Source: a candidate division FCPU426 bacterium
GTDB lineage: Bacteria > Oederibacteriota > Muellerivitia > Muellerivitales > Muellerivitaceae
Direction: 5' to 3'
NCBI GenBank assembly: GCA_963719085.1
Contig: CAVRAL010000001.1
Span: 352,378-416,377 of the forward strand
Length of the DNA: 64,000 nucleotides
Below, piece by piece: positions 2,472 to 57,254 of this stretch; position 1 is the stretch's first letter, and each line of letters opens with the position of its first letter. Made by a program: the position numbers and the translations under genes. The notes under the pieces were generated by a model. It was not told where the DNA came from, ran no database searches, and saw nothing but the letters and a program-made list of their open reading frames with translations.

Positions 2472-2659
2472 CACCAAAACCAACTGCTCACGCAAAGACG
2501 CTAAGACGCCAAGGAAACATTGAGAATTAAATGATTTTTTGAGAGTCTATTCTTGTTGTTGGCGGCTTAGCCGTTTTGAAAACCGTCTCTTTCATTCTGC
2601 TTAAAAGATTTGCCTTCCTTTGCGTCTTAGCGTCTTTGTGTGAGCGGTTTGTGTTGGTT
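2472..2659 (+). repeat. family-A octamer-arm inverted-repeat element, copy A1 (long ~45-bp arms, ~100-nt loop)
   Basis: Left CACCAAAACCAACTGCTCACGCAAAGACGCTAAGACGCCAAGGAA; right CCTTCCTTTGCGTCTTAGCGTCTTTGTGTGAGCGGTTTGTGTTGG (near-perfect reverse complement); upstream of GT2 gene. Confidence 0.75.
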
Positions 2660-2746
2660 AAGTTTTTCGAGTAGCCGGGTTGCTTTTCCCCTTCGGTTTT
2701 CTTAAGTTCACAAGGATTTAACACTCTTCATTCCCTCAGGAGCCTT

Positions 2747-3451
2747 ATGCGGTTCGCGGTGATCTTGCCGGTTTATAACGAGGAAGCGACCCTCGAAAAA
2801 GTCCTCAAACAAGTCTTCGAATATAAAGAAGCCGACGTGGTGGTAGTGGACGACGGTTCGGTGGACCGCACCCCCAAAATCCTCAAAAGTCTTCCGGTCA
2901 AGGCGGTGATCCGCCATCCCCAAAATCTTGGCTACGGCCAGACCCTGATCGACGGTTTCCGATTCGCGATCGAAAATAATTACCAACATTGCGTCACCAT
3001 GGACGCGGATGACCAGCATGAGCCGGGGTTTATCAGCTGCTTTCTGGAGAAGCTGGACAAATTCGACATCGTTTCGGGCAGCCGCTATTTGGACCCCTTG
3101 CTGGCGGGGGACCATCCTCCGGCGGACCGTTTGGAGGTGAACCGCCTGGTCACCCAGAAGGTGCGGGAGCTGACCGGCTATCCCTTGACGGATAGTTTTT
3201 GCGGTTTTAAGGGCTACCGGGTGGAAGGTTTGAAAAAGATGAAGCTCACCGAGACCAATTATGGGTTTCCCCTGCAGGTTTGGATGCAGGCCGCCCGGCT
3301 GGGGTTGAAAGTCACCGAGTGTGCCGTGCCCCTCATTTACCTGGATCCCAAGCGGAATTTTAATAATCAATTCACGGGCCAAGACGAGCGTTTAAAGCAC
3401 TATTTCGCTGTATTGGAACGTGAAAAAAAGTTATGGGACCAAAACGCTTAA
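2747..3451 (+). CDS. family 2 glycosyltransferase (polyprenol-phosphate sugar synthase / Dpm1-like)
   Basis: N-terminal ILPVYNEE...VVVDDGSVDRT GT2 signature, DXD-like DADDQ; SD CAGGAG upstream. Confidence 0.8.
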   Translation: MRFAVILPVYNEEATLEKVLKQVFEYKEADVVVVDDGSVDRTPKILKSLPVKAVIRHPQNLGYGQTLIDGFRFAIENNYQHCVTMDADDQHEPGFISCFLEKLDKFDIVSGSRYLDPLLAGDHPPADRLEVNRLVTQKVRELTGYPLTDSFCGFKGYRVEGLKKMKLTETNYGFPLQVWMQAARLGLKVTECAVPLIYLDPKRNFNNQFTGQDERLKHYFAVLEREKKLWDQNA

Positions 3452-3543
3452 CCCTTCCCGGCATTTTCAGAGTTTTTTAATCGGCCGATTCCGTTATCAT
3501 CTGAAGGTTGCCTTGAAACGTTTTTTCGTTCCCATTTCAGGAG

Positions 3544-5136
3544 GTGGTCATGGCCGATTCCGCGAACCCCGTTCCTCTGCGCCACGGCGAGTTTTATTTT
3601 GAGCCGGCCTTGGGACAGTGGAAGGACCAGATCCTCCGGAATCGCGAGCGGCTTTCCAAGGAAACCTTTTGGGGCCAGAGCCCCTTGAAGGTCCGCGCCG
3701 CGATGAAGATTCCCGCCGACCGTCCCGTTGTCATGACCGGCCATCAGCCGGTTTTTTTCCATCCCGGCCTTTGGGCGAAAAGCCTGGCGGCCAGCGTGAT
3801 GGCCCAAGCGGTGGGCGGGGTGGCTTGCCAAAAATTAACCGATACGGCCATGCCCTTGGAGACCCTGCATTACCTTCCTGAGGTGGAAGAGGGCGGCCAA
3901 TCCCGCCGCCGGCCCCTTGAGTTTTTCACCTCCAAAGAAGGCCAAGAGCTGGTGAAAACAATGCCTTACGCTTTTTTAGGCGTTCCGGAAAAGGCGGCCC
4001 TTCAAAAAATATTGGAGGAAGGCAAGCTCAACGCCCCCGCGGACGTCCGGGAAAACCTGAAATTTTACGAGGACCGGCTGATGGCGGGGCTTCGGGAATG
4101 TAAAACTTGGGACGAGTATCATATTTACACCCTGCGGATTCTGGATGAGCTTTCCGGAACCCAGCGGCTTTATTTCCAGGGAAGCAAATTTTGGAGTATG
4201 GAGCCCTTCCAGGAATTCGTCGCCTATTGGCTGATGAACCTGCCGGCCATGACGGACGCCTATAACCACTCGCTGATCGAATACCGGGCCCAGCACCAGA
4301 TCAAACATGAACTGACGCCCTTGCCCAACTTGAAGTTCGAGGATTGGTGGTTCGAGCTTCCTTTCTGGGGCCTGAACAAATATCACCAGCGCCATTCGCT
4401 TTGGGCCAAGACCGACGGGGACCGCATGATCCTTCGCATGAAGGGAAGCGACGGCAATTATTCCATCTCTACCAAGGATTTTGTACGCGAACTCAAGGCC
4501 CTGCCCATCCAGTTTTGGCCCAAGGCCCTGACCCAAACGCTTTTTTGCCGGCTTTATCTTTGCGATTATTTCATCCATGGGGTGGGCGGCGGGATTTACG
4601 AGCAGGTGAACAACCTCTTATGGGAAAAGGTCTTCAAGTCGAAGGCGGCCGAGTTGGGCGTGGTGACCGCCACCTGGCGGGTCGATCCGGCCCAGAGCGC
4701 CAAGATCGACGAGATTGTCCGGCACGAGGAACGAATCCTTTTTTGGGAAAGGGCGCTGGCCAAAAATCCCGAGTATCTATTCACCCGGGCGGAAGCTTGG
4801 GAAAAGGAACTGCCCGAGTTCATCCGGAAAGAATTTGCCCTGGCTTTCGAGAATCCGGTTTTGAAAAACCTGGCGGTGGAAAAAACCCAGTGCGTGGAAA
4901 ACCTCAAGGATCCCAATAAAAAAGCCGCCGCGTCCAAACGCATCGGGGAGATCAACAAGCTCTTAAGCGACAATACCACCGCGGTTTTGAAGGCTTTGGA
5001 AAAGGGCCTGATGGATATTGAGAAACTTAAAAAAGTCCAGGAAACGATTTCGTTCCGGGAATATCCTTTCTTCGTCCACTCGCCGAAGATTTTCCCCGAG
5101 ATGAAAAGGATGATTGAGGAAGGCATGAAGCTTTAA
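3544..5136 (+). CDS. 530-aa cytoplasmic hypothetical protein, possibly BshC-like (putative cysteine ligase family)
   Basis: Long clean ORF with SD GGAGGTGG; segment VVMTGHQPVFFHPGLWAKSLAA resembles the conserved GGQQ-GLxxGPLYxxxK region and size (~540 aa) of BshC; product call is weak. Confidence 0.55.
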   Translation: MVMADSANPVPLRHGEFYFEPALGQWKDQILRNRERLSKETFWGQSPLKVRAAMKIPADRPVVMTGHQPVFFHPGLWAKSLAASVMAQAVGGVACQKLTDTAMPLETLHYLPEVEEGGQSRRRPLEFFTSKEGQELVKTMPYAFLGVPEKAALQKILEEGKLNAPADVRENLKFYEDRLMAGLRECKTWDEYHIYTLRILDELSGTQRLYFQGSKFWSMEPFQEFVAYWLMNLPAMTDAYNHSLIEYRAQHQIKHELTPLPNLKFEDWWFELPFWGLNKYHQRHSLWAKTDGDRMILRMKGSDGNYSISTKDFVRELKALPIQFWPKALTQTLFCRLYLCDYFIHGVGGGIYEQVNNLLWEKVFKSKAAELGVVTATWRVDPAQSAKIDEIVRHEERILFWERALAKNPEYLFTRAEAWEKELPEFIRKEFALAFENPVLKNLAVEKTQCVENLKDPNKKAAASKRIGEINKLLSDNTTAVLKALEKGLMDIEKLKKVQETISFREYPFFVHSPKIFPEMKRMIEEGMKL

Positions 5137-5165
5137 TCGATATGCTAAAGAAAAACTGAATTTTA

Positions 5166-5250
5166 CAATGATGAACGCAGATGAAAACAGATTTTCAAAA
5201 AATTAAGGCTTATCTATTTTCATCAGCGTCCATCTGCGTTCATCATTGTT
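5166..5250 (+). repeat. family-D inverted repeat (ACAATGATGAACGCAGATG arms), copy D1
   Basis: CAATGATGAACGCAGATG ... CATCTGCGTTCATCATTG flanking 48-nt AT-rich loop. Confidence 0.7.
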
Positions 5251-5302
5251 CCAATAGTTGTTATTCTTGTTGCGGATTCTGATTTTTGTTAAAGGATTTT
5301 TT

Positions 5303-5752
5303 ATGGAACAACCAACCTTGCAAATTGAGATCCTGCCGGGCAATGAGGATTTGGGATTGCCCGCTTACGCCACCGAAGGCGCCGCCGGGCTTGACCTGAA
5401 GGCCGCTTTGAAAGAACCCCTGGTTTTGAAGGCGGGGGAGCGTACCATGGTCGCGACCGGTTTGAAGATGGCGATTCCCGTAGGGTTCGAGGGCTGTGTG
5501 CGGCCCCGCAGCGGTTTGGCCGCCAAGCACGGCGTGACGCTGACCAACTCGCCCGGCACGGTGGACGCTGATTACCGGGGCGAGGTGAAGGTGTTGCTCG
5601 TCAACTTAGGCAAGGAAGACGTGACCTTAAACCGGGGCGATCGGATCGCCCAAATGCTCATTACGCCGGTGGCCCACGCCAAGGTGGTCCAGGTGGCATC
5701 GCTCGATGAAACACTCCGGGGCGCCGGGGGATTTGGACACACGGGACGCTGA
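5303..5752 (+). CDS. dut: dUTP diphosphatase
   Basis: MEQPTLQIEILPGNEDLGLPAYATEGAAGLDLKAA...RSGLAAKHGV dUTPase motifs; start moved to ATG 5303 with SD AAGGA 7 nt upstream (track ORF begins upstream at 5258). Confidence 0.9.
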   Translation: MEQPTLQIEILPGNEDLGLPAYATEGAAGLDLKAALKEPLVLKAGERTMVATGLKMAIPVGFEGCVRPRSGLAAKHGVTLTNSPGTVDADYRGEVKVLLVNLGKEDVTLNRGDRIAQMLITPVAHAKVVQVASLDETLRGAGGFGHTGR

Positions 5753-5753
5753 A

Positions 5754-5853
5754 AACCCAAAACAAGTTTTGAATTTTGAGTTTTAAGTTTTGGCGTGTTT
5801 TTGTGCCATGGGCTCAAAAACGTCTTTAACTTAAAACCTAAAACTTAGAACTT
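5754..5853 (+). repeat. inverted-repeat hairpin with tandem AAGTTTTG-type 8-mer arms
   Basis: CAAGTTTTGAATTTTGAGTTTTAAGTTTTGG ... TTAACTTAAAACCTAAAACTTAGAACTTAAAACTTTTG; between dut and GH5, ends 20 nt before ATG 5873. Confidence 0.65.
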
Positions 5854-5872
5854 AAAACTTTTGTGAGGTCTT

Positions 5873-6925
5873 ATGCCTTTTCCATTGGTTCGGCCGGTCG
5901 GCTTTAATTTCGGCGGCTGGATTTCCCAATCCACATTGGAAGACTCCCATGTGGAAACCTTTCTGTCCGAAAAAGATTTCAAAACCGTGGCCCAATGGGG
6001 TTTCAACTCCGTGCGCCTTCCGGTGGATGGTCCGTGGCTTTTTGAGAACGGCGGTCAGGGGCCGCTATCCAAGAAAAAACTGGAAGTCTTGAAAACCATC
6101 CTCCGCTGGTCGGCGGAGGCCGGGCTTTTAACCGTGTTGGACCTGCACCAGGTGCCCTGGCATTCTTTCGCGAAACCTGAGATCGAGAATTTGTGGAAAA
6201 GCGAAAAGGACCTGGATTCTTTCCGCGGTCTTTGGGCCGAATTGACCCACGCTTTGAAGGGGTTTGAAGGCCCGCTTTGGTTTGACTTGCTCAACGAGCC
6301 GACCGCCCAATCACCCTTGGATTGGCGAAAACCCGCCAAGCTCTCTTATGAGACGGTCCATCGGGAAGACCCGAACCGGATCATCGTTTTAGAATCCACC
6401 CGTTGGGGTTCGGTCCAAACGATTGAGGATTTGGCCCAGGCCGTGCAGGGACCCCAATTGGTCCATAGTTTTCATTTTTATGAGCCCATGTGCGTGACCC
6501 ATCAAAGGGCGCCTTGGTGGAAGGAAGGCCATCCTTATAAGGAGACCGTTCTTTATCCGGGACCCATTCCCAAAGCGAAAGACTACTTGGCGGGAGAACT
6601 TCCGGCGGATACCCGCAAAAGGCTGGAGTTTGAGGGTTCGCTCGAATGGAATAAGGACGCCCTGCGGGAGTTGTTGAAGCCGGTGGAAAAATTAGTGAAA
6701 CAGGGTTTCACCCTTTATTGCGGGGAATTTGGGGTTTTCGAACAGGCGCCCCGGTCTTCCCGGCTGAATTGGATGGCGGACGTGGTTGAGATTTTTGGCC
6801 AATTGGGGGTAGGTTGGGCCTATTGGAACTATAAGTGGCTTGATTTTGGCATCTGGCCCAAGCAAAGTGGGCGGACGGGCCCGCTGGATCAAGAAATGTT
6901 GTCGATTCTTCAAAAGGGGATTTAA
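5873..6925 (+). CDS. glycoside hydrolase family 5 (cellulase-like), no signal peptide
   Basis: (beta/alpha)8 GH5 hallmarks incl. catalytic NEP (FDLLNEPT) and C-terminal GEFG nucleophile region. Confidence 0.75.
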   Translation: MPFPLVRPVGFNFGGWISQSTLEDSHVETFLSEKDFKTVAQWGFNSVRLPVDGPWLFENGGQGPLSKKKLEVLKTILRWSAEAGLLTVLDLHQVPWHSFAKPEIENLWKSEKDLDSFRGLWAELTHALKGFEGPLWFDLLNEPTAQSPLDWRKPAKLSYETVHREDPNRIIVLESTRWGSVQTIEDLAQAVQGPQLVHSFHFYEPMCVTHQRAPWWKEGHPYKETVLYPGPIPKAKDYLAGELPADTRKRLEFEGSLEWNKDALRELLKPVEKLVKQGFTLYCGEFGVFEQAPRSSRLNWMADVVEIFGQLGVGWAYWNYKWLDFGIWPKQSGRTGPLDQEMLSILQKGI

Positions 6926-6928
6926 CGA

Positions 6929-9238
6929 ATGAAAAAGAAGCGGTTGGCGGAGGGCGTTTGGCTGGCCTTGGGGCTGGCGGGGCTCCTGGCGGGTTGCGGC
7001 GGCAATCGCTCGATGGTCCAAAACCAACCCGCGCCCGCCCCATCGCCCATTGTGGCCGCCCCCGCGGCGGCGGCTCCGGTGCCGGCGTCCGCGAACGCCG
7101 AGGTGAACCAGCCGGTGGCGGACCCAGACTACCAGCAAGCGGTGACCGACGCCAATGGCGCCACGGTGAGCTGGCGCAATATGGCCGACTATTACACCGT
7201 GGCCCAATATCAGTATAACCACTCGGATTGGGCGGACTCGCTGAAGACCTATCAAAGGATTTTGACCGAACTCAGCGCTTCCCCCAAATTAGACCGGGCC
7301 CAGTACATGGTGGGGCAGGTTTATTTCCAGATGAAGAATAACCTGTCGTCGCTTTCGGCTTTCCAGAACGTCCTTCAAAATTATCCGAGTTCGTCTTACG
7401 CGGATCCGAGCCGCCAAATGATGGAATACATGATCCAATATTCCTTGAGCCTGGATGAGCTGAAAAGGTTCGAGGCCAATTATCCGGGGTCGCCTTTAAA
7501 GTGCCCCACCTTGTTCCAATTGGGAAGCCGGGAAGCCCAAGCCGGCGACACCACGGACGCGGTGCAAACCCTGAACAGCTACCTTCAACAATGCCCCCAG
7601 GACGCTTCCGCTTCCTCCGCGCAGCTGCTGCTTCAGTCCATGCGGGACCAGCAAAAGGGCAAGACCTGGCGGCTGGGAGTCTTGGCGCCTTTAAGCGGAC
7701 GGTTTAAGGGATTCGGCCAATCTTTCGTCAATGGAATCACATTGGCTTTTGAGCAAGCGGGCCAAAGCGGCGTCCCCCATAAAATGACCCTGGCCGTGGT
7801 GCAGGACACGGGCGGCGACTCGCTCAAGGCCGTCAAATTATTCCAGCAAATGACCCAGGATGGATCGGTGGACGCCATCCTGGGCCCCGTGGTGAAGTCG
7901 GAAATCGACGCCGTGGCGCCCTTGGCCAACCAGCAAAAGATTTTACTTTTAGCCTCGACCTATCCGGTGGACGGACTCTCGGGAATCGGACCCTATATTT
8001 TCAGCAACAGCATGACCAACGAGATGCAGGGCCGGGCGATGGGCCACTACGCGGTGGAACATTTGGGGCTCAAGCGCTTCGGGCTGCTTTATCCCGACGA
8101 TGGCTACGGCCAGACGCTGTCGCAGGCGTTCAGCCAAACCGTGGAAGCCTTAGGCGCCACCGTGACGGCCCAGGATACCTATGAACCCAATTCCACCGAT
8201 TTCCAAAAACAAATCGCGGATTTGGGCGGACAAAACCCGGAAGCCGCCAAAGAAAACGACCGCGATAACCAGCGGAAGCTGGATGAGCTTCATTACAATT
8301 TAGGCAAAGAAATCCAAAAATTCCTTTTCAAGGCCCAGCAAGCCGATCCCACCAGTTCCACGGTGGCCTTTGTGGCGCCGGCGGAAGCCCTGGCCAATAC
8401 CCAAAGCCCTTCCATTCAAAAGGACGTCAACGCGGTTTTGCTCAATGACATCCAAGGTGCCAAGGGTTTCACCTTGCGCAGCGACGATTTGGTTCAGCAG
8501 GCTTTGACCCGGCTTCCGGTGGAATATCGGGGAACCACGCTTCCTGTCAGCGCGGACCAATGGGACGATGTGGCGGAAGACCTGCAGGCGTCCGTCATCG
8601 TCACGGGCCGGATTTTCGGAATGAATCCGCCGACCGACACCACCGATCCGACCTGGGACTATTCGCTGGAATTGGAAGCGTTTCAAACCGACCCGAAGAG
8701 CGGGCAGTTGACCAAGTTGGCCGGCGATAAATTGTCCTTCAGTGTTTTTAAACCCATCGGCCTGGTGCCGAATAGCTTGAAGTTTGACGCTTTATATATG
8801 CCCGCCCATTCGGTGGAGATTCCTTTGATCGCGTCCCAATTGCATTATTACAACTTGAGCCCAACGCTCTTGGGGGGGCATCTTTGGCTGAACGACAACT
8901 TGTTGCAGGATGATCCCAAGGATGTGGAAGGATCGTACTTTGTCACGGGCTTTTTCCCCGACAGCCAGCAGGGCACGACCAAGGATTTTGTGACCGCTTA
9001 TTTGCAGCGTTTCGCCGCCAAGCCCGATCTCGTGGCGGCGGAAGCTTATGACGCGGCCAAGCTCTTGATCAAGGCCGGAGACACGGCCGTCAGCTCGGAC
9101 GACCTGCGCAACCAATTGATGGCGATCAAGGATTTTGACGGCGTGGGCGGGCAAACTTCCTTCAACGGACACGCGGAAGCCGATAAACAAGTGCCGGTCA
9201 TCCAGATCAAGGACGGGAAGTACCAGCAGGTTCAATAA
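6929..9238 (+). CDS. LpoA-like lipoprotein: N-terminal TPR-like region + C-terminal type I periplasmic binding (LivK-like) fold
   Basis: Lipobox LLAGCGG; Pro/Ala-rich linker; TPR-like middle; LGVLAPLSGRFKGFGQSFVNGITLAFEQ typical of Peripla_BP_6/LpoA C-domain. Confidence 0.65.
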   Translation: MKKKRLAEGVWLALGLAGLLAGCGGNRSMVQNQPAPAPSPIVAAPAAAAPVPASANAEVNQPVADPDYQQAVTDANGATVSWRNMADYYTVAQYQYNHSDWADSLKTYQRILTELSASPKLDRAQYMVGQVYFQMKNNLSSLSAFQNVLQNYPSSSYADPSRQMMEYMIQYSLSLDELKRFEANYPGSPLKCPTLFQLGSREAQAGDTTDAVQTLNSYLQQCPQDASASSAQLLLQSMRDQQKGKTWRLGVLAPLSGRFKGFGQSFVNGITLAFEQAGQSGVPHKMTLAVVQDTGGDSLKAVKLFQQMTQDGSVDAILGPVVKSEIDAVAPLANQQKILLLASTYPVDGLSGIGPYIFSNSMTNEMQGRAMGHYAVEHLGLKRFGLLYPDDGYGQTLSQAFSQTVEALGATVTAQDTYEPNSTDFQKQIADLGGQNPEAAKENDRDNQRKLDELHYNLGKEIQKFLFKAQQADPTSSTVAFVAPAEALANTQSPSIQKDVNAVLLNDIQGAKGFTLRSDDLVQQALTRLPVEYRGTTLPVSADQWDDVAEDLQASVIVTGRIFGMNPPTDTTDPTWDYSLELEAFQTDPKSGQLTKLAGDKLSFSVFKPIGLVPNSLKFDALYMPAHSVEIPLIASQLHYYNLSPTLLGGHLWLNDNLLQDDPKDVEGSYFVTGFFPDSQQGTTKDFVTAYLQRFAAKPDLVAAEAYDAAKLLIKAGDTAVSSDDLRNQLMAIKDFDGVGGQTSFNGHAEADKQVPVIQIKDGKYQQVQ

Positions 9239-9261
9239 AGATAATTATCGAAAACCTATTT

Positions 9262-9356
9262 CACCACCAAGGCACCAAGACGCCAAGGACGGCTAAACTG
9301 AGGGTATTTAACCCAAATTATTTTTGCTTTCTTGGTGTCTTGGTGCCTTGGTGGTA
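9262..9356 (+). repeat. family-A element, copy A2
   Basis: TCACCACCAAGGCACCAAGACGCCAAGGACGGC ... GCTTTCTTGGTGTCTTGGTGCCTTGGTGGTAAAA; ends 42 nt before hisS GTG. Confidence 0.75.
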
Positions 9357-9397
9357 AAACATTCTGTGACTTTACCCATAATAAAAAGGTTTGAACC

Positions 9398-10865: not shown

Positions 10866-10889
10866 CCGGCCCTTTCGGGGCCTTTTTTA
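10866..10889 (+). terminator. intrinsic terminator after hisS
   Basis: CCGGCCCTTTCGGGGCC followed by TTTTTTATTT. Confidence 0.6.
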
Positions 10890-10896
10890 TTTGTCT

Positions 10897-10934
10897 CGCC
10901 TTCCTTGGCGCCTTGGCGTCTTGGCGGTGAAATT
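10897..10934 (+). repeat. family-A solo right arm, copy A3
   Basis: CGCCTTCCTTGGCGCCTTGGCGTCTTGGCGGTGAAA with no upstream partner; ends 20 nt before aspS GTG. Confidence 0.7.
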
Positions 10935-10953
10935 TAGGTAATAGGAGTTTTTC

Positions 10954-13400: not shown

Positions 13401-13444
13401 GTTCGGGAAGCGAAGTCCGGAAAAGCAGGATTTTAAAACCGAAA

Positions 13445-13489
13445 ACTCCCTTTTTCCCGGTTGGGAAGAGGGAGTTTTTTTTTAATGTT
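13445..13489 (+). terminator. intrinsic terminator after LysM gene
   Basis: AACTCCCTTTTTCCCGG-ttgg-GAAGAGGGAGTT then TTTTTTTTT. Confidence 0.55.
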
Positions 13490-13506
13490 TTTAATTGAAA
13501 CAATTT

Positions 13507-13686
13507 TACCGCCAAGGCGCCCCGCTGGCCCATTGGGGGCCAAACGAGCGGGACAGTGCCGCCCCCATTAATTTTTTTATGGAGGGGCGGCCGCCAAGTT
13601 CGCCAAGAACAGCGAAAGACGAAGGCTTTTAAAACATATTTGGATTTAGCCTTTCTTGGCGAACTTGGCGCCTTGGCGGTGAAAAA
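13507..13686 (+). repeat. family-A element, copy A4, with module-G insertion (13522-13587) in left arm
   Basis: TACCGCCAAGGCGCC[insert]GGCCGCCAAGTTCGCCAAGAACAGCGAAAGACGAAGGC ... GCCTTTCTTGGCGAACTTGGCGCCTTGGCGGTGAAAAAG; ends 39 nt before phoH TTG. Confidence 0.7.
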
Positions 13687-16564: not shown

Positions 16565-16574
16565 AAAGTTTGAA

Positions 16575-16712
16575 CCACAGAGTACACAGAGTTACACGGA
16601 GTAAGGCGGCAGGCTGCATCAATTGAAGTTTGAACAAGTTTTTAACCAAGTGATTTATCTGTCATAAAAGGACTTTGTTTTACTCTGTGTAACTCTGCGT
16701 ACTCTGCGGTAA
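16575..16712 (+). repeat. inverted-repeat hairpin with tandem 9-mer arms (CACAGAGTA units), same architecture as family A, ending GCGGTAAA
   Basis: ACCACAGAGTACACAGAGTTACACGGAGTAAGG ... TTTACTCTGTGTAACTCTGCGTACTCTGCGGTAAA; followed by T-run; between corC and PHP gene. Confidence 0.7.
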
Positions 16713-19628: not shown

Positions 19629-19800
19629 TTAGCAATGATATCCCGGGATTCCATATTGTGGTTAAAGATACCCGGGACAATGTCGCTCTCCCCTAACTTC
19701 TAAATGAGGAAGCGACGCGAACGCAGATGGAAGCCGATAGAAGATTTGTGAACCATTTGAATTTGTTTAATCCGCGTGTATCTGCGTTCATCATTGCTAA
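19629..19800. repeat. family-D inverted repeat, copy D2 (split left arm with internal CCCGGG hairpin)
   Basis: TTAGCAATGAT[...ATCCCGGGAT...ATACCCGGGAC...]GCGAACGCAGATGG ... TATCTGCGTTCATCATTGCTAA; overlaps GT1 stop codon. Confidence 0.6.
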
Positions 19801-20951: not shown

Positions 20952-21104
20952 GGGAGTTCATTCCGGTTGCTGAATGTGGGACAACCGCTTGATTTTAGCA
21001 GGAGGACGGCGCGGCCGCTTGGAATTCGAGTCCCCGGCGACCTTCGAGGACAAAACTTTTGGATTTATATACCGGAGTTCCTTTTTCCTGATTTTGCCGT
21101 GTTT

Positions 21105-21264
21105 TGTCGTTGCGAGGGACGAACTTTGTGGCGAAGCGACCCCAGTTCATGGATTGTGTTCACTTTGCGGCGGACGGCCATCTCCAAAGGCATATTAAAT
21201 ACCCACTAACTGAGGTTGCTTCGTCGCTAACACCCATGAAAGACGCTCCCCGCAATGCCGTCGA
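21105..21264. repeat. MITE-like element B, copy 1 (imperfect ~16-bp terminal inverted repeats)
   Basis: Left TGTCGTTGCGAGGGACGAACTTTG, right GACGCTCCCCGCAATGCCGTCG; interior ~70% identical to copy 2. Confidence 0.6.
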
Positions 21265-21369
21265 ACCCCAGCTCTGCTTTCGCCTCGGGTTAAAACTTTT
21301 CAGGAAAAAAGGCCTGTTCATTCAGCCTCCGCCGGGTAAAATCGGGGCACCTTCTGGAGAAGGAAGCTC

Positions 21370-22664: not shown

Positions 22665-22674
22665 TCAATCAGCC

Positions 22675-22710
22675 TTTAAACGGGTCCTGTGAGACCCCTA
22701 AGGAATAAAA
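22675..22710 (+). promoter_or_regulatory. PyrR binding loop (anti-antiterminator RNA) in pyr leader
   Basis: UUUAAACGGGUCCUGUGAGACCCCUAAGGAAUAA closely parallels B. subtilis BL1 UUUAAGGGCAGUCCAGAGAGGCUGAGAAGGAUAA (conserved UCCNGNGAG loop and AAGGA). Confidence 0.65.
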
Positions 22711-22741
22711 GCATGGCGCTCGCTTGCCCGCGCACAATTGA

Positions 22742-23368
<627 letters not shown>

Positions 23369-23375
23369 AAAAAAC

Positions 23376-23480
23376 TACGCACGCTAAGACGCAAAGACGC
23401 CAAGGAAGGCAAAGATTTTTGTTCGATGCCTCCCTAAGAGCTTCGTCGTTCTTAGCGTCTTTGCGTCTTTGCGTGAGCGG
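23376..23480 (+). repeat. family-A element, copy A5 (pyrR-pyrB intergenic)
   Basis: CGCACGCTAAGACGCAAAGACGCCAAGGAAGGC ... CGTCGTTCTTAGCGTCTTTGCGTCTTTGCGTGAGCGG; ends 13 nt before pyrB ATG. Confidence 0.75.
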
Positions 23481-23492
23481 TTGGTGGGCCGT

Positions 23493-24425
23493 ATGAATTG
23501 GCGCTCCAAAGACCTGCTCACGCTTGAGGAACTCACTGCCGCCGAGATCCAAATGATTTTGGATACGGCTTCCTCGCTGAAAGAAGTCTCGACCCGTTCG
23601 GTAAAAAAAGTGCCGGCCTTGCGGGGCCGCACCGTGGTGCTTTTCTTCCAAGAGCCTTCCACCCGCACCCGGGTTTCCTTTGAACTGGCCGCCAAGCGCA
23701 TGAGCGCCGACATCCTGAACGTCCAAACCGCTTCCTCGTCGCTAGTCAAGGGCGAGACCTTGATTGACACGGTCAAAACGCTGGAAGCCATGACCATCGA
23801 CGCGATCGTGGTGCGGCATTCCTGCTCGGGCGTGCCCCAGATGCTGTCGAATGTCTTGAAAGCCTCCGTCATCAACGCGGGAGACGGTTCCCATGAGCAC
23901 CCGACCCAAGGCTTGCTTGACCTTTTCACCATCCGCGAGCACAAAGGCAAAATCGAGGGCCTCACCGTCACCATCGTGGGCGACGTGGCCCACAGCCGGG
24001 TGGCCCGGTCCAATATCCACGGCCTTACCAAGCTCGGGGCCAGGGTCCGGGTTTGCGCGCCGCCCACGCTCATTCCGATGGGAATTGAAAAAATGGGAGT
24101 CGAAGTTTTTCACGACCTGGACAAGGCCCTGGACGGGACCGACGTGGTTTATGTGCTGAGGCTGCAGCTCGAGCGGCAAAAGAAAAATCTGTTTCCCACC
24201 ATCCGCGAATATTCCATGCTTTACGGCATGACCAACGAGCGGCTGAAACGGGCCAAAAAAGGCGCCATCGTGATGCATCCCGGGCCCATGAACCGCGGGG
24301 TGGAAATATCCTCCGGCGTGGCCGACGGGCCGGCATCGGTGATCGACGAACAGGTCACCAACGGGGTCGCGGTCCGAATGGCGGTTTTGTACCTGCTCCA
24401 AGGCGAAAAAAATGAAACCAATTAA
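23493..24425 (+). CDS. pyrB: aspartate carbamoyltransferase catalytic subunit
   Basis: STRTR carbamoyl-phosphate motif, HPTQ, 310 aa; ATG 23493 preferred because track TTG 23469 lies inside the repeat arm. Confidence 0.9.
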
Positions 24426-24547
24426 CCGCCAAGACGCCAAGTCCGCCAAGAGAGGCGTTACAGATAAATCGATTTGGGACACCGAAAATATTTCTTCTCT
24501 AAAATCTTTAATCCGGACTTGGCGCGCTTGGCGTCTTGGCGGTGAAA
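24424..24547 (+). repeat. family-A element, copy A6 (pyrB-pyrC intergenic)
   Basis: AACCGCCAAGACGCCAAGTCCGCCAAGAGAGGC ... CCGGACTTGGCGCGCTTGGCGTCTTGGCGGTGAAAA; ends 14 nt before pyrC ATG. Confidence 0.75.
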
Positions 24548-25856: not shown

Positions 25857-25961
25857 GGCTCACGCAAAGACGCTAAGATGCCAAGGACGGCAAAGTCTGA
25901 TTTTGAGAAAAACTTAATGCTTTTGTAGTTCTTGGCGGACTTGGTGTCTTGGCGGTGAAAA
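25857..25961 (+). repeat. family-A element, copy A7 (pyrC-carA intergenic)
   Basis: GGCTCACGCAAAGACGCTAAGATGCCAAGGACGGC ... AGTTCTTGGCGGACTTGGTGTCTTGGCGGTGAAAAA. Confidence 0.7.
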
Positions 25962-25991
25962 AAATCTAAGGGGTTTTGGGTGGCTTCTAAA

Positions 25992-48574: not shown

Positions 48575-48610
48575 AAAGTTTCGGATTTCCGGAACCGAAG
48601 CCCGGCTTTA

Positions 48611-49779: not shown

Positions 49780-49873
49780 TGGAGTAACCCTCTTGGTTTT
49801 GCCGGGATTATAATTGTTTGAGGGTTTTTGCCAAAGGGGATTCATGGGAGGCCGATAATGTTAGACTATCCCC

Positions 49874-50419: not shown

Positions 50420-50420
50420 A

Positions 50421-50640
50421 CCTTTTCACCGCCCCGCCCGGCCTAGTTAGGCCGAAGCAGGCGGGACATACCACCTTCGATATCATTTTATATATGGATG
50501 GTGGTGCCAAGACGCCAAGTCCGCTAAGTGAGGCATGCATCTGTATTTTACGGAATCAAGAATTTTAACCGTTATTCTTAAGCCGAATTTTTTTAATCTG
50601 AAATAAGGTTGATTTAACTTGGCGTCTTGGCGATGAAATA
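50421..50640 (+). repeat. family-A element, copy A8, long form with module G (50432-50499) inserted after TTCACCGCC
   Basis: TTCACCGCC[module G]GGTGCCAAGACGCCAAGTCCGCTAAGTGAGGC ... AACTTGGCGTCTTGGCGATGAAATAGG; ends 27 nt before ATG 50667. Confidence 0.7.
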
Positions 50641-50666
50641 GGTTCATTTTATATTCGTGGAGAAAT

Positions 50667-52003: not shown

Positions 52004-52015
52004 GACAGATAAAAC

Positions 52016-52122
52016 AAGTTTAAAAGTTAGGAACGAGAAGTTCGAAGTTGGATTCAAAAGAAAATCAAAAAGGCTCACGAAGATGGATGATCGAAACTCA
52101 TCACTCCTAACTTCTAACTGCC
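52016..52122 (+). repeat. imperfect inverted repeat with AAGTTAGG-type units
   Basis: AAGTTTAAAAGTTAGGAACGAGAAGTTCGAAGTTGG ... CACTCCTAACTTCTAACTGCC; ends 15 nt before ATG 52137. Confidence 0.45.
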
Positions 52123-52136
52123 CAAGGAAAACTTGA

Positions 52137-55100
52137 ATGAAACTAATGAAAACTTTATCCCTCTTATTTTTAGTCCTGATGGGATTCAACCCAGTCAGGG
52201 CCGCGGACTTCAATTGGCTGGCCAACGGTGATTTCAGCCACCCCGAGGCCGGGGGAACCCAAGGCTGGGTGGGGAACCTCAACCTCCAGCCGGGCCGGGA
52301 CGGCAAGCCCGCGGTCACGATGGAAAACCTCCAGGTCAATTGGACCGAGGTCAGCCAGAAGGTTCCCCTGCCCGATCCGGCCCCCCCGGCGGTTGAAATT
52401 TCCGGTTGGGTGAAGACCCAGAACGTGGTCCAAGGCGCGCAAACTTGGAACGCGGCGCGGATCAGCGTGGTCTTTTACGACAAGGCCGGCAACCGTTTGG
52501 GGGATTGGCCCCCGACCACGGCTCAAGTGATCGGCACCCACGATTGGACGCTTTATTCCCACGAGTATCCGGTTCCGCCCGGGACCGCTTGGCTGACGGT
52601 GGAGCTTTCCCTGGGCGATTGCTTGGGGAAAGCTTGGTTCAGTGATATCCAATGCTCGGTTTACGATTATGATTCCAATCGATTGGCCGCGGGGGCGAAG
52701 ACCCATCCGGCGCTCAAACCGCAGGCTTCCGGCCCCACGACCAATTGGCTCATCAACCCGGGCTTTGAGGATTTGGGCTCCCGGGATTGGAACGGCGGGC
52801 AAGTGGTCCCGGGCGGACGGCAATCGGCCCACTCGCTTTTCATCCAAAACGACGCGCCTTCCTGGAACTTGGCCGAACAAGATGTTTCCACTGGGGGACA
52901 AACGCCCAGCTCTTCCGATTCGACTTCAATGAAAGCCGGACAAACGCCCGCTTTCATCGTTTATGGCGGCTGGTTAAAAACCGAGGGCGTGGTCCCGGGA
53001 ACCGCGGACTATATGGCGGCCCGGCTCGGCGTGGATTTTAGGGACGCCTCCGGCAAACAGCTGGGCGGTTGGCAGGATTCGGTCTGCAAAATCACCGGAA
53101 CCACCGATTGGACCTATGTCGAGAAAAAATATCCCGTGCCGCCGGGAACCGCCCAAATCCATGTGGACGCGGGGCTGGGCAATTGCGTTGGAAAAGTTTG
53201 GCTGGACGACCTGCGCTTGTCGCTGCTCGATTCCGCGGGCGCGCCCCTCACCACGATCGTCAGGACCCAGCAGGTCAGCGACACTTCGGATTGGTATGCT
53301 TACACGCCTCCTACCGACCCTTCGGGCGCCGCGCTCGACCTTTCATTCCTCAATGAAAAACCGGCGGGCACCCACGGCTTTGTCACGGCCCAAGGCGGGC
53401 ACTTTAGCTTCAAGGATGGGAGCCGGATCCGCTTTTGGGGAACGGATGTGATCGGGCCCAACCTCTTCCTGGCCCACGACCAGGCCGACGCCCTGGCGCT
53501 TCGGCTTTCCAAATTGGGCGTGAACTTGGTGCGCCTGCATATGGCGGACGCCGATTGGACCGACAATAATTTTTTTGACCCCAAGGCCGACAACACCCTG
53601 TCGCTTCAACCGGCCCAGGTGGAAAAGTTCGATTATCTGGTTTCGGCGCTGAAGAAAAATGGGATCTATGTTTATCCCGATTGGATCGTGGACCGTAAAT
53701 TCCGCCCCGGGGACCATGTGCCCGATTATCAGCAATTGGAAGAAGGCGCCAAAGGCGTGATCCATTTCAGCCACCGGATCATTGAGATGAACAAGCTTTA
53801 CGCCAAACAAATCCTCACCCACCTCAATCCCTACACGGGGATGACCCTGGCCGCCGACCCGGTTTACGTGGGCAATGAAATCGTCAACGAGTCCTCGATC
53901 TTCACCAATTTCCAGGAACAAAACTATCCGCCGGCCTATTGGGCCGAGCTTCAAAAGCTTTACACCCGCTGGGGCGGCAAGGGCCAGGTGGCCCATTTCA
54001 AATTCGACTATGACAACCAAAAACTGGTCCCGACCCAAAATCCCGAGAACGCCGACGCCACCCTGAAGTTCCTGCTGGGGGAAGTGGAGGCGAGCGACCG
54101 GGAAATGAAAAAGTTCCTGAAGCTCACCAGCCCGCACGCGCTGTTGACCGGCAGCAATATGGGGTTTCCCGTGCTGGGGAATATCAAAAGCGATTCGCTG
54201 ATGGATTTTATGGATACCCACTGTTATTGGGACCACCCCCAGTATTGGAATATTGAGGGGGGCTGGGCCAACGTGGATTACGCGCCGATGAACAACAACT
54301 CCCAGCTTCAAAATCCTTTTCAAGGGTCGCTGGTCTTCAACCTTTCCCACGACGCCGTGGAAGGCAAACCCTTGATCGTCACCGAGTGGAACGATTGTTT
54401 TCCCAACGAGTACCGGATCGAGGGACCCATGCTTTTGGCCGCCTATGGATCGCTCCAGGATTGGGACGGCCTGCTTCAATTTGATTACGGGATGGAGAAG
54501 CCGGGGACGGTCAAGATGACCAATTTCGCCCTCAATACCCGGGTGGATAATGAGCCGCTTTTCCAAGCGGGCGCCTTGATCTTCCGGGAAGCCCTCTTGA
54601 AGCCCTCGGCCGTCACCGTGGTCGAGCCTTTGGCGGATTCCCAAATTTTAGCCAATGGAAGCAAAAGCCAATGGCTGTTCGACCATCCCTGGCTTCCTTA
54701 CGCGGTGAAGGTCGTGAAGCGCTTCACGGGAGCGGCGGCTGAGAAGGCCTCGGACCTGACGGCGTTGGAGCCGCTGGACCGGGAAGAGGACAAAACCGTG
54801 AACAGCTCCACGGGCGAAGAAAGCCTGGATTACGGAAAGGGGATTTTGAAAGTGGACAGCCCCCAAGCGCAAGGCTTCACGGGCGCCTTGCCGGCGGCCG
54901 GGGAAAAGACCGCCGATATGGCCGTGGCGGTGTCCCCCCGAAACCCCTGGGTTTCGGTGATGGCGGTGAGCCTGGATCAAAAACCTTTGGCCGGTTCGAA
55001 ACGATTGGTTTTATTCGCCGTGGGCCGGGCGGAAAACAGTGGTCAGGTTTTCAACGTCACCCGCAAGGCCCTGAAGAATCCGGGCCACCCGCCGGTTTTG

Positions 55101-55292
55101 ATGCAGGGCGTTTCCGCCGGGATCGCCTTGCGGCTGGATCCGGATGAAACTTACCAGGTTTTCCCCTTGGATAGCGATGGAAAGGAAGGGACGCCCTTGA
55201 AGGCGGCCCAGGTGAAGGGAATCTTGAAATTCACGATCTCGCCCAAGGATCAAACGAGCGATTATTTGGTGAGGGTCGAGGACAAAAACTAA
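52137..55292 (+). CDS. secreted multidomain glycoside hydrolase: two N-terminal CBM4/9-like modules + GH5-like (beta/alpha)8 domain + C-terminal domains
   Basis: Signal peptide; duplicated WLxNGxFE...GW...W...TxDWT modules; catalytic region with VYVGNEIVNES (GH5 NE motif); 1051 aa. Confidence 0.75.
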   Translation: MKLMKTLSLLFLVLMGFNPVRAADFNWLANGDFSHPEAGGTQGWVGNLNLQPGRDGKPAVTMENLQVNWTEVSQKVPLPDPAPPAVEISGWVKTQNVVQGAQTWNAARISVVFYDKAGNRLGDWPPTTAQVIGTHDWTLYSHEYPVPPGTAWLTVELSLGDCLGKAWFSDIQCSVYDYDSNRLAAGAKTHPALKPQASGPTTNWLINPGFEDLGSRDWNGGQVVPGGRQSAHSLFIQNDAPSWNLAEQDVSTGGQTPSSSDSTSMKAGQTPAFIVYGGWLKTEGVVPGTADYMAARLGVDFRDASGKQLGGWQDSVCKITGTTDWTYVEKKYPVPPGTAQIHVDAGLGNCVGKVWLDDLRLSLLDSAGAPLTTIVRTQQVSDTSDWYAYTPPTDPSGAALDLSFLNEKPAGTHGFVTAQGGHFSFKDGSRIRFWGTDVIGPNLFLAHDQADALALRLSKLGVNLVRLHMADADWTDNNFFDPKADNTLSLQPAQVEKFDYLVSALKKNGIYVYPDWIVDRKFRPGDHVPDYQQLEEGAKGVIHFSHRIIEMNKLYAKQILTHLNPYTGMTLAADPVYVGNEIVNESSIFTNFQEQNYPPAYWAELQKLYTRWGGKGQVAHFKFDYDNQKLVPTQNPENADATLKFLLGEVEASDREMKKFLKLTSPHALLTGSNMGFPVLGNIKSDSLMDFMDTHCYWDHPQYWNIEGGWANVDYAPMNNNSQLQNPFQGSLVFNLSHDAVEGKPLIVTEWNDCFPNEYRIEGPMLLAAYGSLQDWDGLLQFDYGMEKPGTVKMTNFALNTRVDNEPLFQAGALIFREALLKPSAVTVVEPLADSQILANGSKSQWLFDHPWLPYAVKVVKRFTGAAAEKASDLTALEPLDREEDKTVNSSTGEESLDYGKGILKVDSPQAQGFTGALPAAGEKTADMAVAVSPRNPWVSVMAVSLDQKPLAGSKRLVLFAVGRAENSGQVFNVTRKALKNPGHPPVLMQGVSAGIALRLDPDETYQVFPLDSDGKEGTPLKAAQVKGILKFTISPKDQTSDYLVRVEDKN

Positions 55293-55304
55293 GGACCGGA
55301 AAAC

Positions 55305-55514
55305 CGATTTGCCGCCCTGCCCGGGCTAACTGGGCCGAAGCAGGCGGGACATACCACGCTCAGTATCATTTTATAAATGGAGGCTGGTGCCAAGACGCCA
55401 AGAACGGCATTTGATTTTTTAAAAAAGACGAATTTAGTTGTTGGGTAAAAATGGAATTTTTACGGTTTAGTTCTATGGTTCACTTGGCGAACTTGGCGTC
55501 TTGGCGGTGAAGGG
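55305..55514 (+). repeat. family-A element, copy A9, long form with module G (55311-55384)
   Basis: TTTGCCGCC[module G]TGGTGCCAAGACGCCAAGAACGGC ... GGTTCACTTGGCGAACTTGGCGTCTTGGCGGTGAAGGGG. Confidence 0.7.
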
Positions 55515-55943
55515 GCTTTTCTTTATTTTCTTCGTGTTTTCTTGCGTCGTTCTTTTTTACGGCGGGGTTCTTTTTTTAAACTGGGGTTTTCGCTCCAGCG
55601 GCGGGCGCCGGTCCGGCGGTCTTTGGGCGCGCGGGCCACGGAAGGTGATTTTTTGAATCCTAGGGCGGCAAGTAAACCATTCAAGAAACCGGCCATGGGG
55701 CGCCTTTCGAAGGACGAATTTCAAGGATGGTAAGGCCTCAACTCCCAAACATCAATCCGGATTTGGCCCCGCTTCCATAGGCTCAAAAATGTCCATTCGT
55801 CCATTATTTGACTGTTCTGGCCTTAGGCGCGTCCGGCCCCGGCTTTTTGAAAGCGCCTTTTTATGGGGCTTTTTCCCTTGGCATTGAAAATGCACATCAC
55901 TTTAGGCGTCTTCAAAATCAGGTTGGGGAAAGCCGCTTATTCA

Positions 55944-56702
55944 ATGAAGTTCGAACGCTTATTCTTATCGCTTTTATTCATGGGGACCCTCGGTTTGGGA
56001 TGGATGACGGGCTGTACCAAACAATTAACCCCGGTCGTTCCCGCGGGTCTTCCCACCCTCCAGCCCACCGCCACACCGACCGAAACTTTTACCGCGCCCT
56101 ACCAGACCCCGACCGTTTCGGTGCCTCCCGCCGGCATTTACCTGGTGGCGGACACCCAGAACAATTTCTTTACCTACGTTAATTTAGCCGTCAATGGCGC
56201 GCCGGAAACGACCGCGACGGTCACTTTGACCACGCCCTCGGGGCCGCTTTCGCTTCCTTATTTTTCGGGGAACCCGCCGAGCGCTTTGGCGCCTTATTTC
56301 ACGAACGCGGGGGCCAATTTGCCCGGTTCGGATTACCAAGCCGGAGGGGTTTATACCTTGACCGTGGCGACTTCCATCGGAACCGTGAGCGCTTCCGTGA
56401 CGGCGCCGGGGGGATCGGTCAATTTCGCTTCGGATGGATCCCAGGTCTCCTGGGCGGTGGAAGGGGATGAGGATTACGCCACCGTCACCCGGGTTTCGCC
56501 TTACGGCACGACCTACCAGTCTTTCGCTACGGTGGAGGATGTCACGTCGCCCTTGTCGATCCCGAGCTCGGCTTATCCCACCACGGGCACCAGCTACTAT
56601 TTGACGCTTTTCGCGCAATCGACGCTTTACAACATTCCGGGGACGCAAGCCGGATCCCGTTGGACCATCACGCAGGTAACGACGGATACCCTGAGCAAAT
56701 AA
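55944..56702 (+). CDS. Thr/Pro-rich lipoprotein
   Basis: Lipobox LGWMTGC; TPTETFTAPYQTPTVSVPP low-complexity then beta-rich domain; start chosen at ATG 55944. Confidence 0.55.
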   Translation: MKFERLFLSLLFMGTLGLGWMTGCTKQLTPVVPAGLPTLQPTATPTETFTAPYQTPTVSVPPAGIYLVADTQNNFFTYVNLAVNGAPETTATVTLTTPSGPLSLPYFSGNPPSALAPYFTNAGANLPGSDYQAGGVYTLTVATSIGTVSASVTAPGGSVNFASDGSQVSWAVEGDEDYATVTRVSPYGTTYQSFATVEDVTSPLSIPSSAYPTTGTSYYLTLFAQSTLYNIPGTQAGSRWTITQVTTDTLSK

Positions 56703-56775
56703 AAGTCGCGCGGGATCCTTAACAAAAAAAAGGCTTACCGGATTCCGGTAAGCCTTTTTTGGTTAAAGTTGAAAC

Positions 56776-57162
56776 TCAGGGTTGGAGGCTGAAGGGTCCC
56801 GAACCGAAATAAGCGATGAGCAGGGCCGCGCCCAAGAGCGCCAGGTTTTTATTGAACATGATCATGTCATGCGTTTTGGCGGTAGGGTCCTTCAAGGTCC
56901 AATAGTTATGGATCAGGAAGGTGACCGGGGCCAAGAAAGCCACAATCAGCCAAGCGCCCCAACGGGCCTCGTAGCCGACGACGATGAGGAGCCCGCCGAC
57001 CAATTCCATCAATCCGGATACCAGCACCAGAAATTCGGCCGCCGGGACGCCCTTGGATTTGGCGTAACCCGCCAGCATTTTGGGCTGAGCCAAATGGCTG
57101 AAGCCGCTGGCGATGAAAAGAAAGCTGTAAAGAATTCGACCCACTAAAACCGCGATTCCCAT
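56776..57162 (-). CDS. DoxX family membrane protein
   Basis: 128 aa, 4 TM, DoxX-like. Confidence 0.7.
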   Translation of the reverse strand: MGIAVLVGRILYSFLFIASGFSHLAQPKMLAGYAKSKGVPAAEFLVLVSGLMELVGGLLIVVGYEARWGAWLIVAFLAPVTFLIHNYWTLKDPTAKTHDMIMFNKNLALLGAALLIAYFGSGPFSLQP

Positions 57163-57219
57163 AAAATCCTCCTATGAATGTTTGGCTTAAAGAAACTTCG
57201 AATTTCCGGCAAAATCGAT

Positions 57220-57254
57220 TTCACCGCCAAGACGCCAAGTGCGCCAAGTGAAGC
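57220..57254 (-). repeat. family-A solo arm in reverse orientation (copy A10), upstream of minus-strand DoxX gene
   Basis: Plus strand TCACCGCCAAGACGCCAAGTGCGCCAAGTGAAGC = rc of GCTTCACTTGGCGCACTTGGCGTCTTGGCGGTGA; orientation follows downstream gene. Confidence 0.7.

Follow-up and report, generated by a model that had tools for sequence, protein, structure and literature searches.

Intergenic hairpin repeats in a candidate division FCPU426 genome resemble gene-less copies of cassettes carrying the GxxExxY gene

The 64,000-nucleotide stretch analysed here (positions 352,378 to 416,377 of contig CAVRAL010000001.1, assembly GCA_963719085.1, from a candidate division FCPU426 bacterium; hereafter the window) carries in its intergenic DNA a family of dispersed repeats, family A, most copies of which form hairpins. 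The original prediction of ten intergenic copies of a single family was borne out. A pattern search of the window with CTTGGCGTCTTGGCGGTGAAA, allowing up to 3 mismatches, gave 9 matches where 0.01 would be expected by chance, and the two-unit pattern CTTGGCGNCTTGGCG, allowing up to 2 mismatches, gave 28 matches compared with 1.1 expected. The repeats are genuine and lie far above chance. Individual copies were located by reading the loci in combination with an inverted-repeat scan and folding, and comprise eight hairpins (A1, A2 and A4 to A9), whose stems contain 14-39 Watson-Crick pairs by alignment and folding, and two solo arms (A3 and A10), both of which had been predicted as such and were confirmed by the scan and by reading of the loci. 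The flanking genes, checked against Pfam, include TPR/GT2, hisS, aspS, LysM/phoH, the pyrR-pyrB-pyrC-carA series, cobO, doxX and a radical-SAM gene. Family A elements nearly fill the spacers in which they lie, starting 4-21 nt past the upstream stop codon (A6 overlaps it) and having their right ends 14-89 nt ahead of the next start codon. The exception is A9, for which the latter distance is ~300 nt or more.

All copies except A10 are assigned to the forward strand. A1 (2473-2658), in the TPR-GT2 spacer, is a CTTTGCG/CTTAGCG variant whose arms (2473-2516 and 2615-2658; 44 nt and 89% complementary according to the inverted-repeat scan) enclose a loop of 98 nt. A2 (9259-9359; arms 9259-9287 and 9331-9359, 93% complementary) has the CTTGGTG variant in both arms and is found 21 nt after the upstream stop codon, with the start of the hisS open reading frame (ORF) 39 nt beyond its end. 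A3 (10904-10932) is a solo right arm, CTTGGCG-C-CTTGGCG-T-CTTGGCG-GTGAAA, with aspS 22 nt further on, and A4 (13504-13684) lies 41 nt before phoH. Canonical intrinsic terminators, consisting of a G+C-rich stem and then a T-run, are positioned directly upstream of both, at 10868-10895 for A3 and 13441-13487 for A4. The left arm of A4 is split by an insert of a second family, family B, so that the element is made up of an outer left piece (13504-13519), the insert (13520-13591), the left arm (13592-13617) and the right arm (13645-13684). A5 (23373-23482; arms 23373-23419 and 23436-23482), a CTTAGCG/CTTTGCG variant, occupies the pyrR-pyrB spacer; A6 (24421-24547) occupies the pyrB-pyrC spacer, its left end overlapping the pyrB stop codon and the pyrC ATG following 14 nt past the right arm; and A7 (25858-25962), in the pyrC-carA spacer, has a drifted left arm with 5 G:U pairs and 3 other mismatches. 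ORF 50667 lies 29 nt beyond A8 (50423-50638; left arm 50507-50529, right arm 50616-50638), whose family B insert (50432-50506) separates TTTTCACCG from the CCAAG of the left arm. The family B insert of A9 (55307-55512; left arm 55390-55414, right arm 55480-55512), at 55315-55389, occupies the same left-arm site as that of A8. A10 (57219-57250, reverse strand) is a solo arm in the divergent spacer between doxX (reverse strand) and the radical-SAM gene (forward strand), 57 nt from the doxX ATG.

The distribution of the arm was assessed by scanning one genome per species, 596 billion bases in total, for CTTGGCGNCTTGGCGGTGAAA. This exact 20-base arm was found at no fewer than 114 loci from more than ten phyla, set against our own estimate of ~1 match expected by chance. 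According to the depositors' taxon labels, the carriers include Verrucomicrobiota, Planctomycetota, Acidobacteriota, FCPU426, Chloroflexota, Myxococcota, Gemmatimonadota, Bacteroidota and others, as well as Alpha-, Beta- and Gammaproteobacteria.

The family A arm consists of three 7-nt cores, CTTNGYG, separated by spacers of 2 nt and then 1 nt and followed by GT(G/T)(A/C)AA; the core nearest the arm end runs straight into GTGAAA. Among 133 arms from the window and the other genomes, exactly 3 cores are present in 67% and 2 cores in 28%, with very few arms having more, and cores 3 and 2 are 2 nt apart in 69%. The 1-nt spacer before the terminal core was imposed by the search pattern; arms found independently at the GxxExxY genes described below mostly share it. 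The three tandem 8-mers originally proposed for each arm therefore stand as regards the number of units, although the unit proves to be a 7-nt core plus spacer, not a plain octamer. The ordered spacers and a core number near 3 indicate a defined architecture, not a slippage array. Core positions 1, 2, 5 and 7 are fixed and position 3 nearly always so, variation being found at positions 4 and 6. An inverted partner lies within 260 nt of ~67% of arms, and ~28% are solo. The loops had been described as non-conserved, and indeed BLAST comparison with the window and all loci revealed no shared interior, whether among family A copies or with any fetched locus. The flanks of the elements are A/T-rich, and no direct repeat indicative of a target-site duplication was evident in 62 flank pairs.

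Changes in one arm tend to be matched in the other. Compensated double changes number 8, compared with 0.2-0.6 expected, and fall almost exclusively at core positions 4 and 6. The claim that variants change together in both arms is thus upheld by the overall count and cleanly by A2, while A5 and A7 contain several uncompensated mismatches. The arms of a given copy are therefore kept concordant or made so; the strand-specific RNA signature is weak. A count of 16 G:U pairs to 1 A:C from minimum-energy folds was discarded as biased, since the folding program itself prefers G:U. The corresponding alignment-based counts are 9 G:U to 3 A:C for family A in the window, 13 to 11 for all 13 hairpins of the window, 52 to 41 for 73 hairpins in other genomes (where per-hairpin over-dispersion is absent) and 84 to 92 for the heptamer class described below. 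Selection on pairing alone, as first suggested, is not supported, given both the invariance of core positions 1, 2, 5 and 7 and the lack of preference for G:U over A:C outside the window. The invariant positions argue for sequence-specific recognition as well as pairing and, taken with the compensated variable positions, suggest sequence-specific recognition of the paired arm.

It had further been proposed that the right arm always lies upstream of a start codon and is oriented with that gene. Full hairpins are near-symmetric and so have no intrinsic orientation; in the window only the two solo arms, A3 and A10, can be oriented. Furthermore, the genes of the window lie almost all on the forward strand, so that a position upstream of a start codon is indistinguishable from one downstream of a stop codon, and the placement of the copies follows from this co-directional layout. 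Genes were also called in the 114 loci of other genomes, with the elements masked. By these heuristic and crude calls, hairpins are found in 23 co-directional, 11 convergent and 7 divergent spacers, and solo arms face a gene start in 12 cases and a gene end in 9. The proposed bias is not sustained.

Coding DNA of the window is 75-84% identical to that of two of the loci, L091 and L055, the latter from an FCPU426 metagenome-assembled genome (MAG). L055 has neither A3 nor A4 in its matching spacers, although the terminators upstream of them are conserved there and the start regions align. Conversely, aspS in L055 is followed by a nested family A complex with no counterpart in the window. At the positions of A6 and A7, the pyrB-pyrC and pyrC-carA spacers of L091 hold hairpins of another unit, AGTTAGG, and its pyrR-pyrB spacer holds a family A hairpin closer to A6 of the window than to A5. 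Presence or absence and family replacement at matching spacers point to a mobile or rapidly replaced element and not to a conserved regulator.

Two other arrangements involving family A arms were seen in the course of this comparison. A miniature inverted-repeat transposable element (MITE) of ~122 bp, with ends TGTAATCTCTGAAAAA and TTTTTCAGAGGTTACA, is essentially identical in six contigs of the FCPU426 MAG CAWKIF01 (L010, L016, L055, L072, L112 and L113; one has a 1-base difference) and has, close to one end, a solo right arm of family A; its L055 copy is located in the loop of a family A hairpin. At L109 (~300-750) the hairpins are concentric, with family A arms outermost and inner layers of four or five different heptamer units.

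A gene is associated with the arms in other genomes. Searches for far partners placed family A arms around an ORF of ~125 amino acids in L060 and L092, and in L102 an ORF lies between two complete family A hairpins. These ORFs encode TIGR04256 GxxExxY proteins (E 2.7e-42 and 2.5e-31). When independent GxxExxY genes were fetched by exact-protein look-up, arms of the family A build were found to adjoin the ~130-residue GxxExxY gene (TIGR04256/PF13366) in 14 of 14 independent contexts (L060, L092, L102, L198/L205, L211, L212, L217, L218, L219, L222, L225, L226, L230 and L231). In every one the right arm is at most ~20 nt from the GxxExxY stop codon, and in L212, L217 and L218 it is the sole arm. 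For example, in L198/L205 the left arm reads TTTGAACC-GCCAAG-A-CGCCAAG-TT-CGCCAAG and is followed by the ORF, while the right arm reads CTTGGCG-CC-CTTGGCG-T-CTTGGCG-GTTCAAC. Elsewhere the core is CTTGGTG (L212, L217, L218, L219 and L230), CTTCGTG (L211, from Fontivita pretiosa), CTTTGCG (L222), CTCTGTG (L226) or mixed (L225 and L231). The core in these contexts may be summarised as C-T-T/C-N-G-Y-G, then GT, and its variable positions 4 and 6 are those that also vary in the window (CTTTGCG, CTTAGCG and CTTGGTG).

In all ten contexts with gene calls the GxxExxY gene is positioned between two co-directional genes, and in eight it is co-oriented with them. Insertion sites include ureB-ureC, the E1beta-E2 spacer of pyruvate dehydrogenase and, twice, pccB-pccA, where the cassettes of two organisms (L217 and L230) lie in opposite orientations. 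In L198, L205 and ~45 further contigs a GxxExxY cassette divides metH into a homocysteine-binding and a pterin/B12 part, called as two genes of the same orientation. Two single MAGs, JACRFY (L002 and L060) and JAJPJW (L028, L048, L059 and L102), hold both gene-bearing and gene-less forms.

Invariant residues of the GxxExxY protein comprise a GPGL-E-Y motif, E44, R48, D74 and E84-x-K86. To judge from this conservation, D74 and E84-x-K86 make up a PD-(D/E)XK catalytic set and the protein is a putative minimal nuclease. A confident AlphaFold model was obtained, with a predicted local distance difference test score of 90 (pLDDT) and a predicted template modelling score of 0.83 (pTM). Among solved folds it comes closest, always as a weak match, to Cas4, RecB-type nucleases, the nuclease domains of AdnAB/AddAB, lambda exonuclease and tRNA-splicing endonucleases. 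A sequence search of the PDB found no solved relative, and the PADLOC defence-system search gave weak Cas4-like similarity only. Just one GxxExxY locus was recovered from viral contigs, so that carriage by phage is unsupported. GxxExxY has been listed without function, in clades of mixed phyla that suggest transfers (PMC3424549), and our literature searches for GxxExxY and PF13366 returned only listings of unknown function.

A sister class of cassette is exemplified by the pyrC-carA hairpin of L091, whose arms (~955-1000 and 1380-1410) enclose an ORF of 116 amino acids (1003-1353, reverse strand). This ORF is co-oriented with the operon and matches PF05635/TIGR02436, the four-helix-bundle '23S rRNA IVS protein' (IVS, intervening sequence); it is an intervening-sequence-like cassette inside an mRNA. 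Relatives of the L091 protein are encoded in 80 metagenome loci that were fetched, 71 of them testable. Flanking inverted repeats were found at 64 of these 71 genes, and tandem heptamers, with a period of 7, in 123 of 126 scored arms. One of the loci, L157, represents a genuine intervening sequence in helix 45 of 23S rRNA; it holds a four-helix-bundle ORF, and its stem is made of CAGTTGA / TAGTTGA-type heptamers; the classical intervening sequence thus belongs to the same repeat-armed class. Assignment of family A itself to this class was rejected, as a hidden Markov model run over six-frame translations of the window and L001-L114 matched only the L091 gene. In our searches GxxExxY (PF13366) had ~8000 hits and the four-helix-bundle family (PF05635) ~3400.

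The best explanation overall, and on balance a probable one, is that family A comprises gene-less, non-autonomous copies of a GxxExxY palindromic cassette, copied by the nuclease and cut by RNase III. The copies appear to be a selfish mobile element and not to control the neighbouring genes. Four roles had originally been offered, as stabilising or processing hairpins in 5' untranslated regions, as RNase III sites in polycistrons, as a protein-binding iteron array or as a selfish mosaic akin to the bacterial interspersed mosaic element (BIME). The evidence favours the last, cutting by RNase III being a likely consequence of the stems rather than an established purpose. We infer that the GxxExxY nuclease mobilises the elements and that RNase III cuts their stems. 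The nuclease would recognise the cores on a folded or duplex arm and promote the copying of cassettes and gene-less hairpins, in a manner analogous either to the action of the REP-associated tyrosine transposase (RAYT) on REPINs, hairpin-forming pairs of repetitive extragenic palindromes (REPs), or to the intron-less homing of free-standing endonuclease genes. The inverted arms enclose a short unique sequence (as in the window), the nuclease gene or further nested hairpins. The elements lodge in short spacers between genes, frequently within operons, and are rapidly turned over among related genomes. In transcripts the stems, of 14-39 bp, may be cut by RNase III in the same way as 23S rRNA intervening-sequence stems. 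Operon spacers would thereby tolerate insertions, and polycistronic mRNAs such as pyrR-pyrB-pyrC-carA would be split incidentally.

Several points weigh against this explanation. No movement event, target-site duplication or donor and recipient pair was seen, and neither the window nor the loci sampled from its closest relatives contain a GxxExxY gene. MITEs or REPINs that are copied as units would not usually have unique loops. In the sister class the cargo is a four-helix bundle and not an enzyme, so that cargo genes may be passengers, not drivers. The sense fold is stabler than the antisense in 7 of the 8 window hairpins of family A (Wilcoxon p=0.016), an excess that also emerges against random window segments (p=0.033) and that could mean some host-level RNA function. 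Finally, the genome scan selected perfect right arms, which biases the variant statistics to the left arm and the third core, and the gene calls at the loci are crude.

A host function of the last kind would make family A a cis-regulatory RNA, that is, a structure in the 5' untranslated region or between cistrons that stabilises, processes or tunes translation of the downstream gene. All eight hairpins do lie in co-directional spacers, three of them within the pyr operon, and the stabler sense fold in seven of eight and the compensated arm changes fit as well. We nevertheless regard such a role as unlikely, given that hairpins are not conserved in matching spacers, that the same element has unrelated neighbours across more than ten phyla and is also seen in convergent spacers, and that G:U is not preferred over A:C outside the window, the preference of family A within it being only 9 to 3. 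Rfam also offers no match: at the gathering score there was none on the copies, and at E<=1 only a chance-level RgsA on the opposite strand, overlapping A4 (E 0.98; 20.3 bits compared with a gathering score of 88.4). A scan for tRNA and tmRNA found none. A passive origin has quite a low probability in our judgement. Family A would then be a simple-sequence repeat, like the short tandemly repeated repetitive (STRR) heptamers of cyanobacteria, arising by local slippage and palindrome formation with no dedicated mobility, as its short tandem units in intergenic DNA and the single or inverted heptamer arrays known from Xanthomonas, Nostoc, Beggiatoaceae and Bacteroidetes (PMC4692102, PMC4679880) might suggest. 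However, a copy number near 3, ordered 2-nt and 1-nt spacers, a conserved terminal motif, identical architecture across phyla and the tight link to one gene family all stand in opposition to it.

The fixed number and spacing of cores and their invariant positions would also suit a DNA site for a host protein, with the cores as iterons, or a promoter, with a -35-like TTGGCG 17 nt from a -10-like TGAAAN. A3 and A10 have a start codon on one side and a terminator or divergent gene on the other, and the MITE of the FCPU426 MAG carries its solo arm pointing outward. Set against this, a scan with the sigma-70 consensus found nothing at the arms and left the promoter reading unsupported, position 2 of the supposed -10 lacks its A, solo arms show no orientation bias, and the majority of copies form inverted pairs within operons, which need no promoter there; we consider a site of either kind very unlikely. 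Least likely of all, indeed barely plausible, is a REP-like terminator or 3'-end stabiliser of the upstream gene. Elements do start 4-21 nt past stop codons, and convergent spacers are somewhat over-represented (11 of 41), but a U-tract is absent, canonical terminators already stand directly upstream of A3 and A4, and several copies separate cistrons whose co-transcription is required. As an intrinsic terminator in particular, the element was rejected because GGTGAAA, and no U-tract, follows the stem, and because the terminator scan picks other sites. On architecture, the initial verdict that these are not a clustered regularly interspaced short palindromic repeat (CRISPR) array, a classical REP or an intrinsic terminator is endorsed, the CRISPR candidate being ruled out on those grounds. 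Integron attC sites were likewise rejected, on the ends and arrangement of the copies and without a screen of the window for an integrase gene: some arm ends (GTTAAAC in L219) do fit the GTTRRRY side of the attC ends RYYYAAC...GTTRRRY, yet the consensus GTGAAA does not, and the copies are unarrayed and dispersed among housekeeping operons.

Read as gene-less GxxExxY cassettes, family A elements have parallels among known systems. Like REPIN/BIME sequences and their RAYT genes, they are dispersed intergenic repeats, single or in hairpin-forming inverted pairs, with many gene-less copies per genome and a small nuclease-type gene flanked by the same repeats. However, the REP/REPIN unit is an imperfect palindrome of 20-40 nt with a GTAG/CGTC tag, whereas the family A arm has neither internal palindrome nor tag; RAYT is a Y1 HUH transposase, whereas the gene associated with family A belongs, on its predicted catalytic residues, to the PD-(D/E)XK type; and REP/REPIN repeats are species-specific, while the family A arm is common to many phyla and its loops are unique. 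The 23S rRNA intervening sequences of Leptospira and Coxiella, with their S23p ORFs, similarly consist of a long inverted-repeat stem enclosing a small ORF or nothing, lie within a transcribed region and are regarded as selfish; RNase III cuts a 28-bp stem of this kind in Coxiella (PMC4990558). The lineage of the window has heptamer-armed relatives of that class (L091), as does an actual 23S gene (L157). Nonetheless, the window copies are in mRNA spacers between protein genes, not in rRNA helix 25 or 45, their arms have a period of 8-9 and not 7, and any cargo of such elements is GxxExxY, not a four-helix bundle.

Tandem heptamers such as the cyanobacterial STRR sequences share with family A their short intergenic units, mostly between co-directional genes, but run head to tail without spacers or a terminal motif and range widely in copy number. 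GGGNATC heptamers occur in Xanthomonas and Nostoc, with inverted pairs noted in the former (PMC4692102), and TAACTGA in Beggiatoaceae, Cyanobacteria and Bacteroidetes, in a distribution patchy across phyla for which horizontal transfer was suspected and no mechanism given (PMC4679880). MITEs, too, are small, non-coding and multi-copy, with terminal inverted repeats and presence/absence variation; unlike them, family A has no conserved interior or classical transposase relative. Literature searches with the family A repeat strings returned nothing relevant, and no link of heptamer repeats to GxxExxY or four-helix-bundle genes was found in the searchable literature, coverage of which is incomplete, so that an earlier description is possible. 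In our view, a non-autonomous palindrome associated with a nuclease gene that the same repeats flank is a new variation on a known theme.

A broader proposal, put forward tentatively and as a possibility that we would not favour outright, is that GxxExxY genes and triple-heptad arms together represent unrecognised, bacteria-wide mobile hairpin cassettes which form a superfamily with the heptamer-armed four-helix-bundle cassettes, are tolerated through RNase III and are a source of STRR-type repeats. The nuclease would in that case recognise CTTNGYG cores and spread itself along with hundreds of gene-less hairpins. Both GxxExxY (PF13366) and the four-helix-bundle proteins (PF05635) are very large families lacking an assigned role, and short intergenic heptamer or octamer repeats have been reported piecemeal for decades with the mechanism missing. 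An arm architecture tied to one nuclease family provides a concrete, testable model of which protein binds or cuts which sequence, and the GxxExxY link would explain the recurrence of identical motifs of 20-30 nt across phyla. There are practical consequences as well. The arms are stop-free in every frame and so seed spurious ORFs in annotation, and they can be mistaken for regulatory RNAs. Should RNase III cut them, operon mRNA processing would be reshaped in many uncultured lineages.

The family B inserts in the left arms of A4, A8 and A9 are ~72-75 nt long, fold into two hairpins and cut the family A core between CG and CCAAG. The predicted structure is kept in the three copies, with 6 pairs changed on both sides. 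Family B was not found in any other fetched locus, and appears to be another small element, one for which the family A core is the target.

Five further intergenic hairpins of the window are built from other units (5163-5251, 19717-19797, 5762-5858, 52018-52122 and 16572-16712). These units are CATCTGCG-type, ending GTTCATCATTG; the heptamers AACTTAA and CTCCTAA; and CTCTGYG. The last is found in the hairpin at 16572-16712 (forward strand), a sibling that ends in GGTAAA and has a family A-like build with its cores 9-10 nt apart; the CTCTGTG arms that flank the GxxExxY gene in L226 have cores akin to these. From the list of ORFs we estimate that roughly a third of the spacers in the window seem to carry a short-unit hairpin.

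Two features of the window unconnected with these hairpins were also observed. A repeat of ~170 nt, TGTCGTTGCGAGGGACGAACTTTG...GATTGCTTCGTCGC...CGCTCCCCGCAATG, is present in two copies (~21090-21265 and 58825-58985), and may resemble a motif that is common among environmental bacteria. A sub-threshold match to the PyrR binding-site RNA (RF00515; 37.8 bits compared with a gathering score of 54, E 0.14) lies at 22669-22792, just upstream of the pyrR ORF and extending into it, and is plausibly a real attenuator of the pyr operon, distinct from the family A hairpins.

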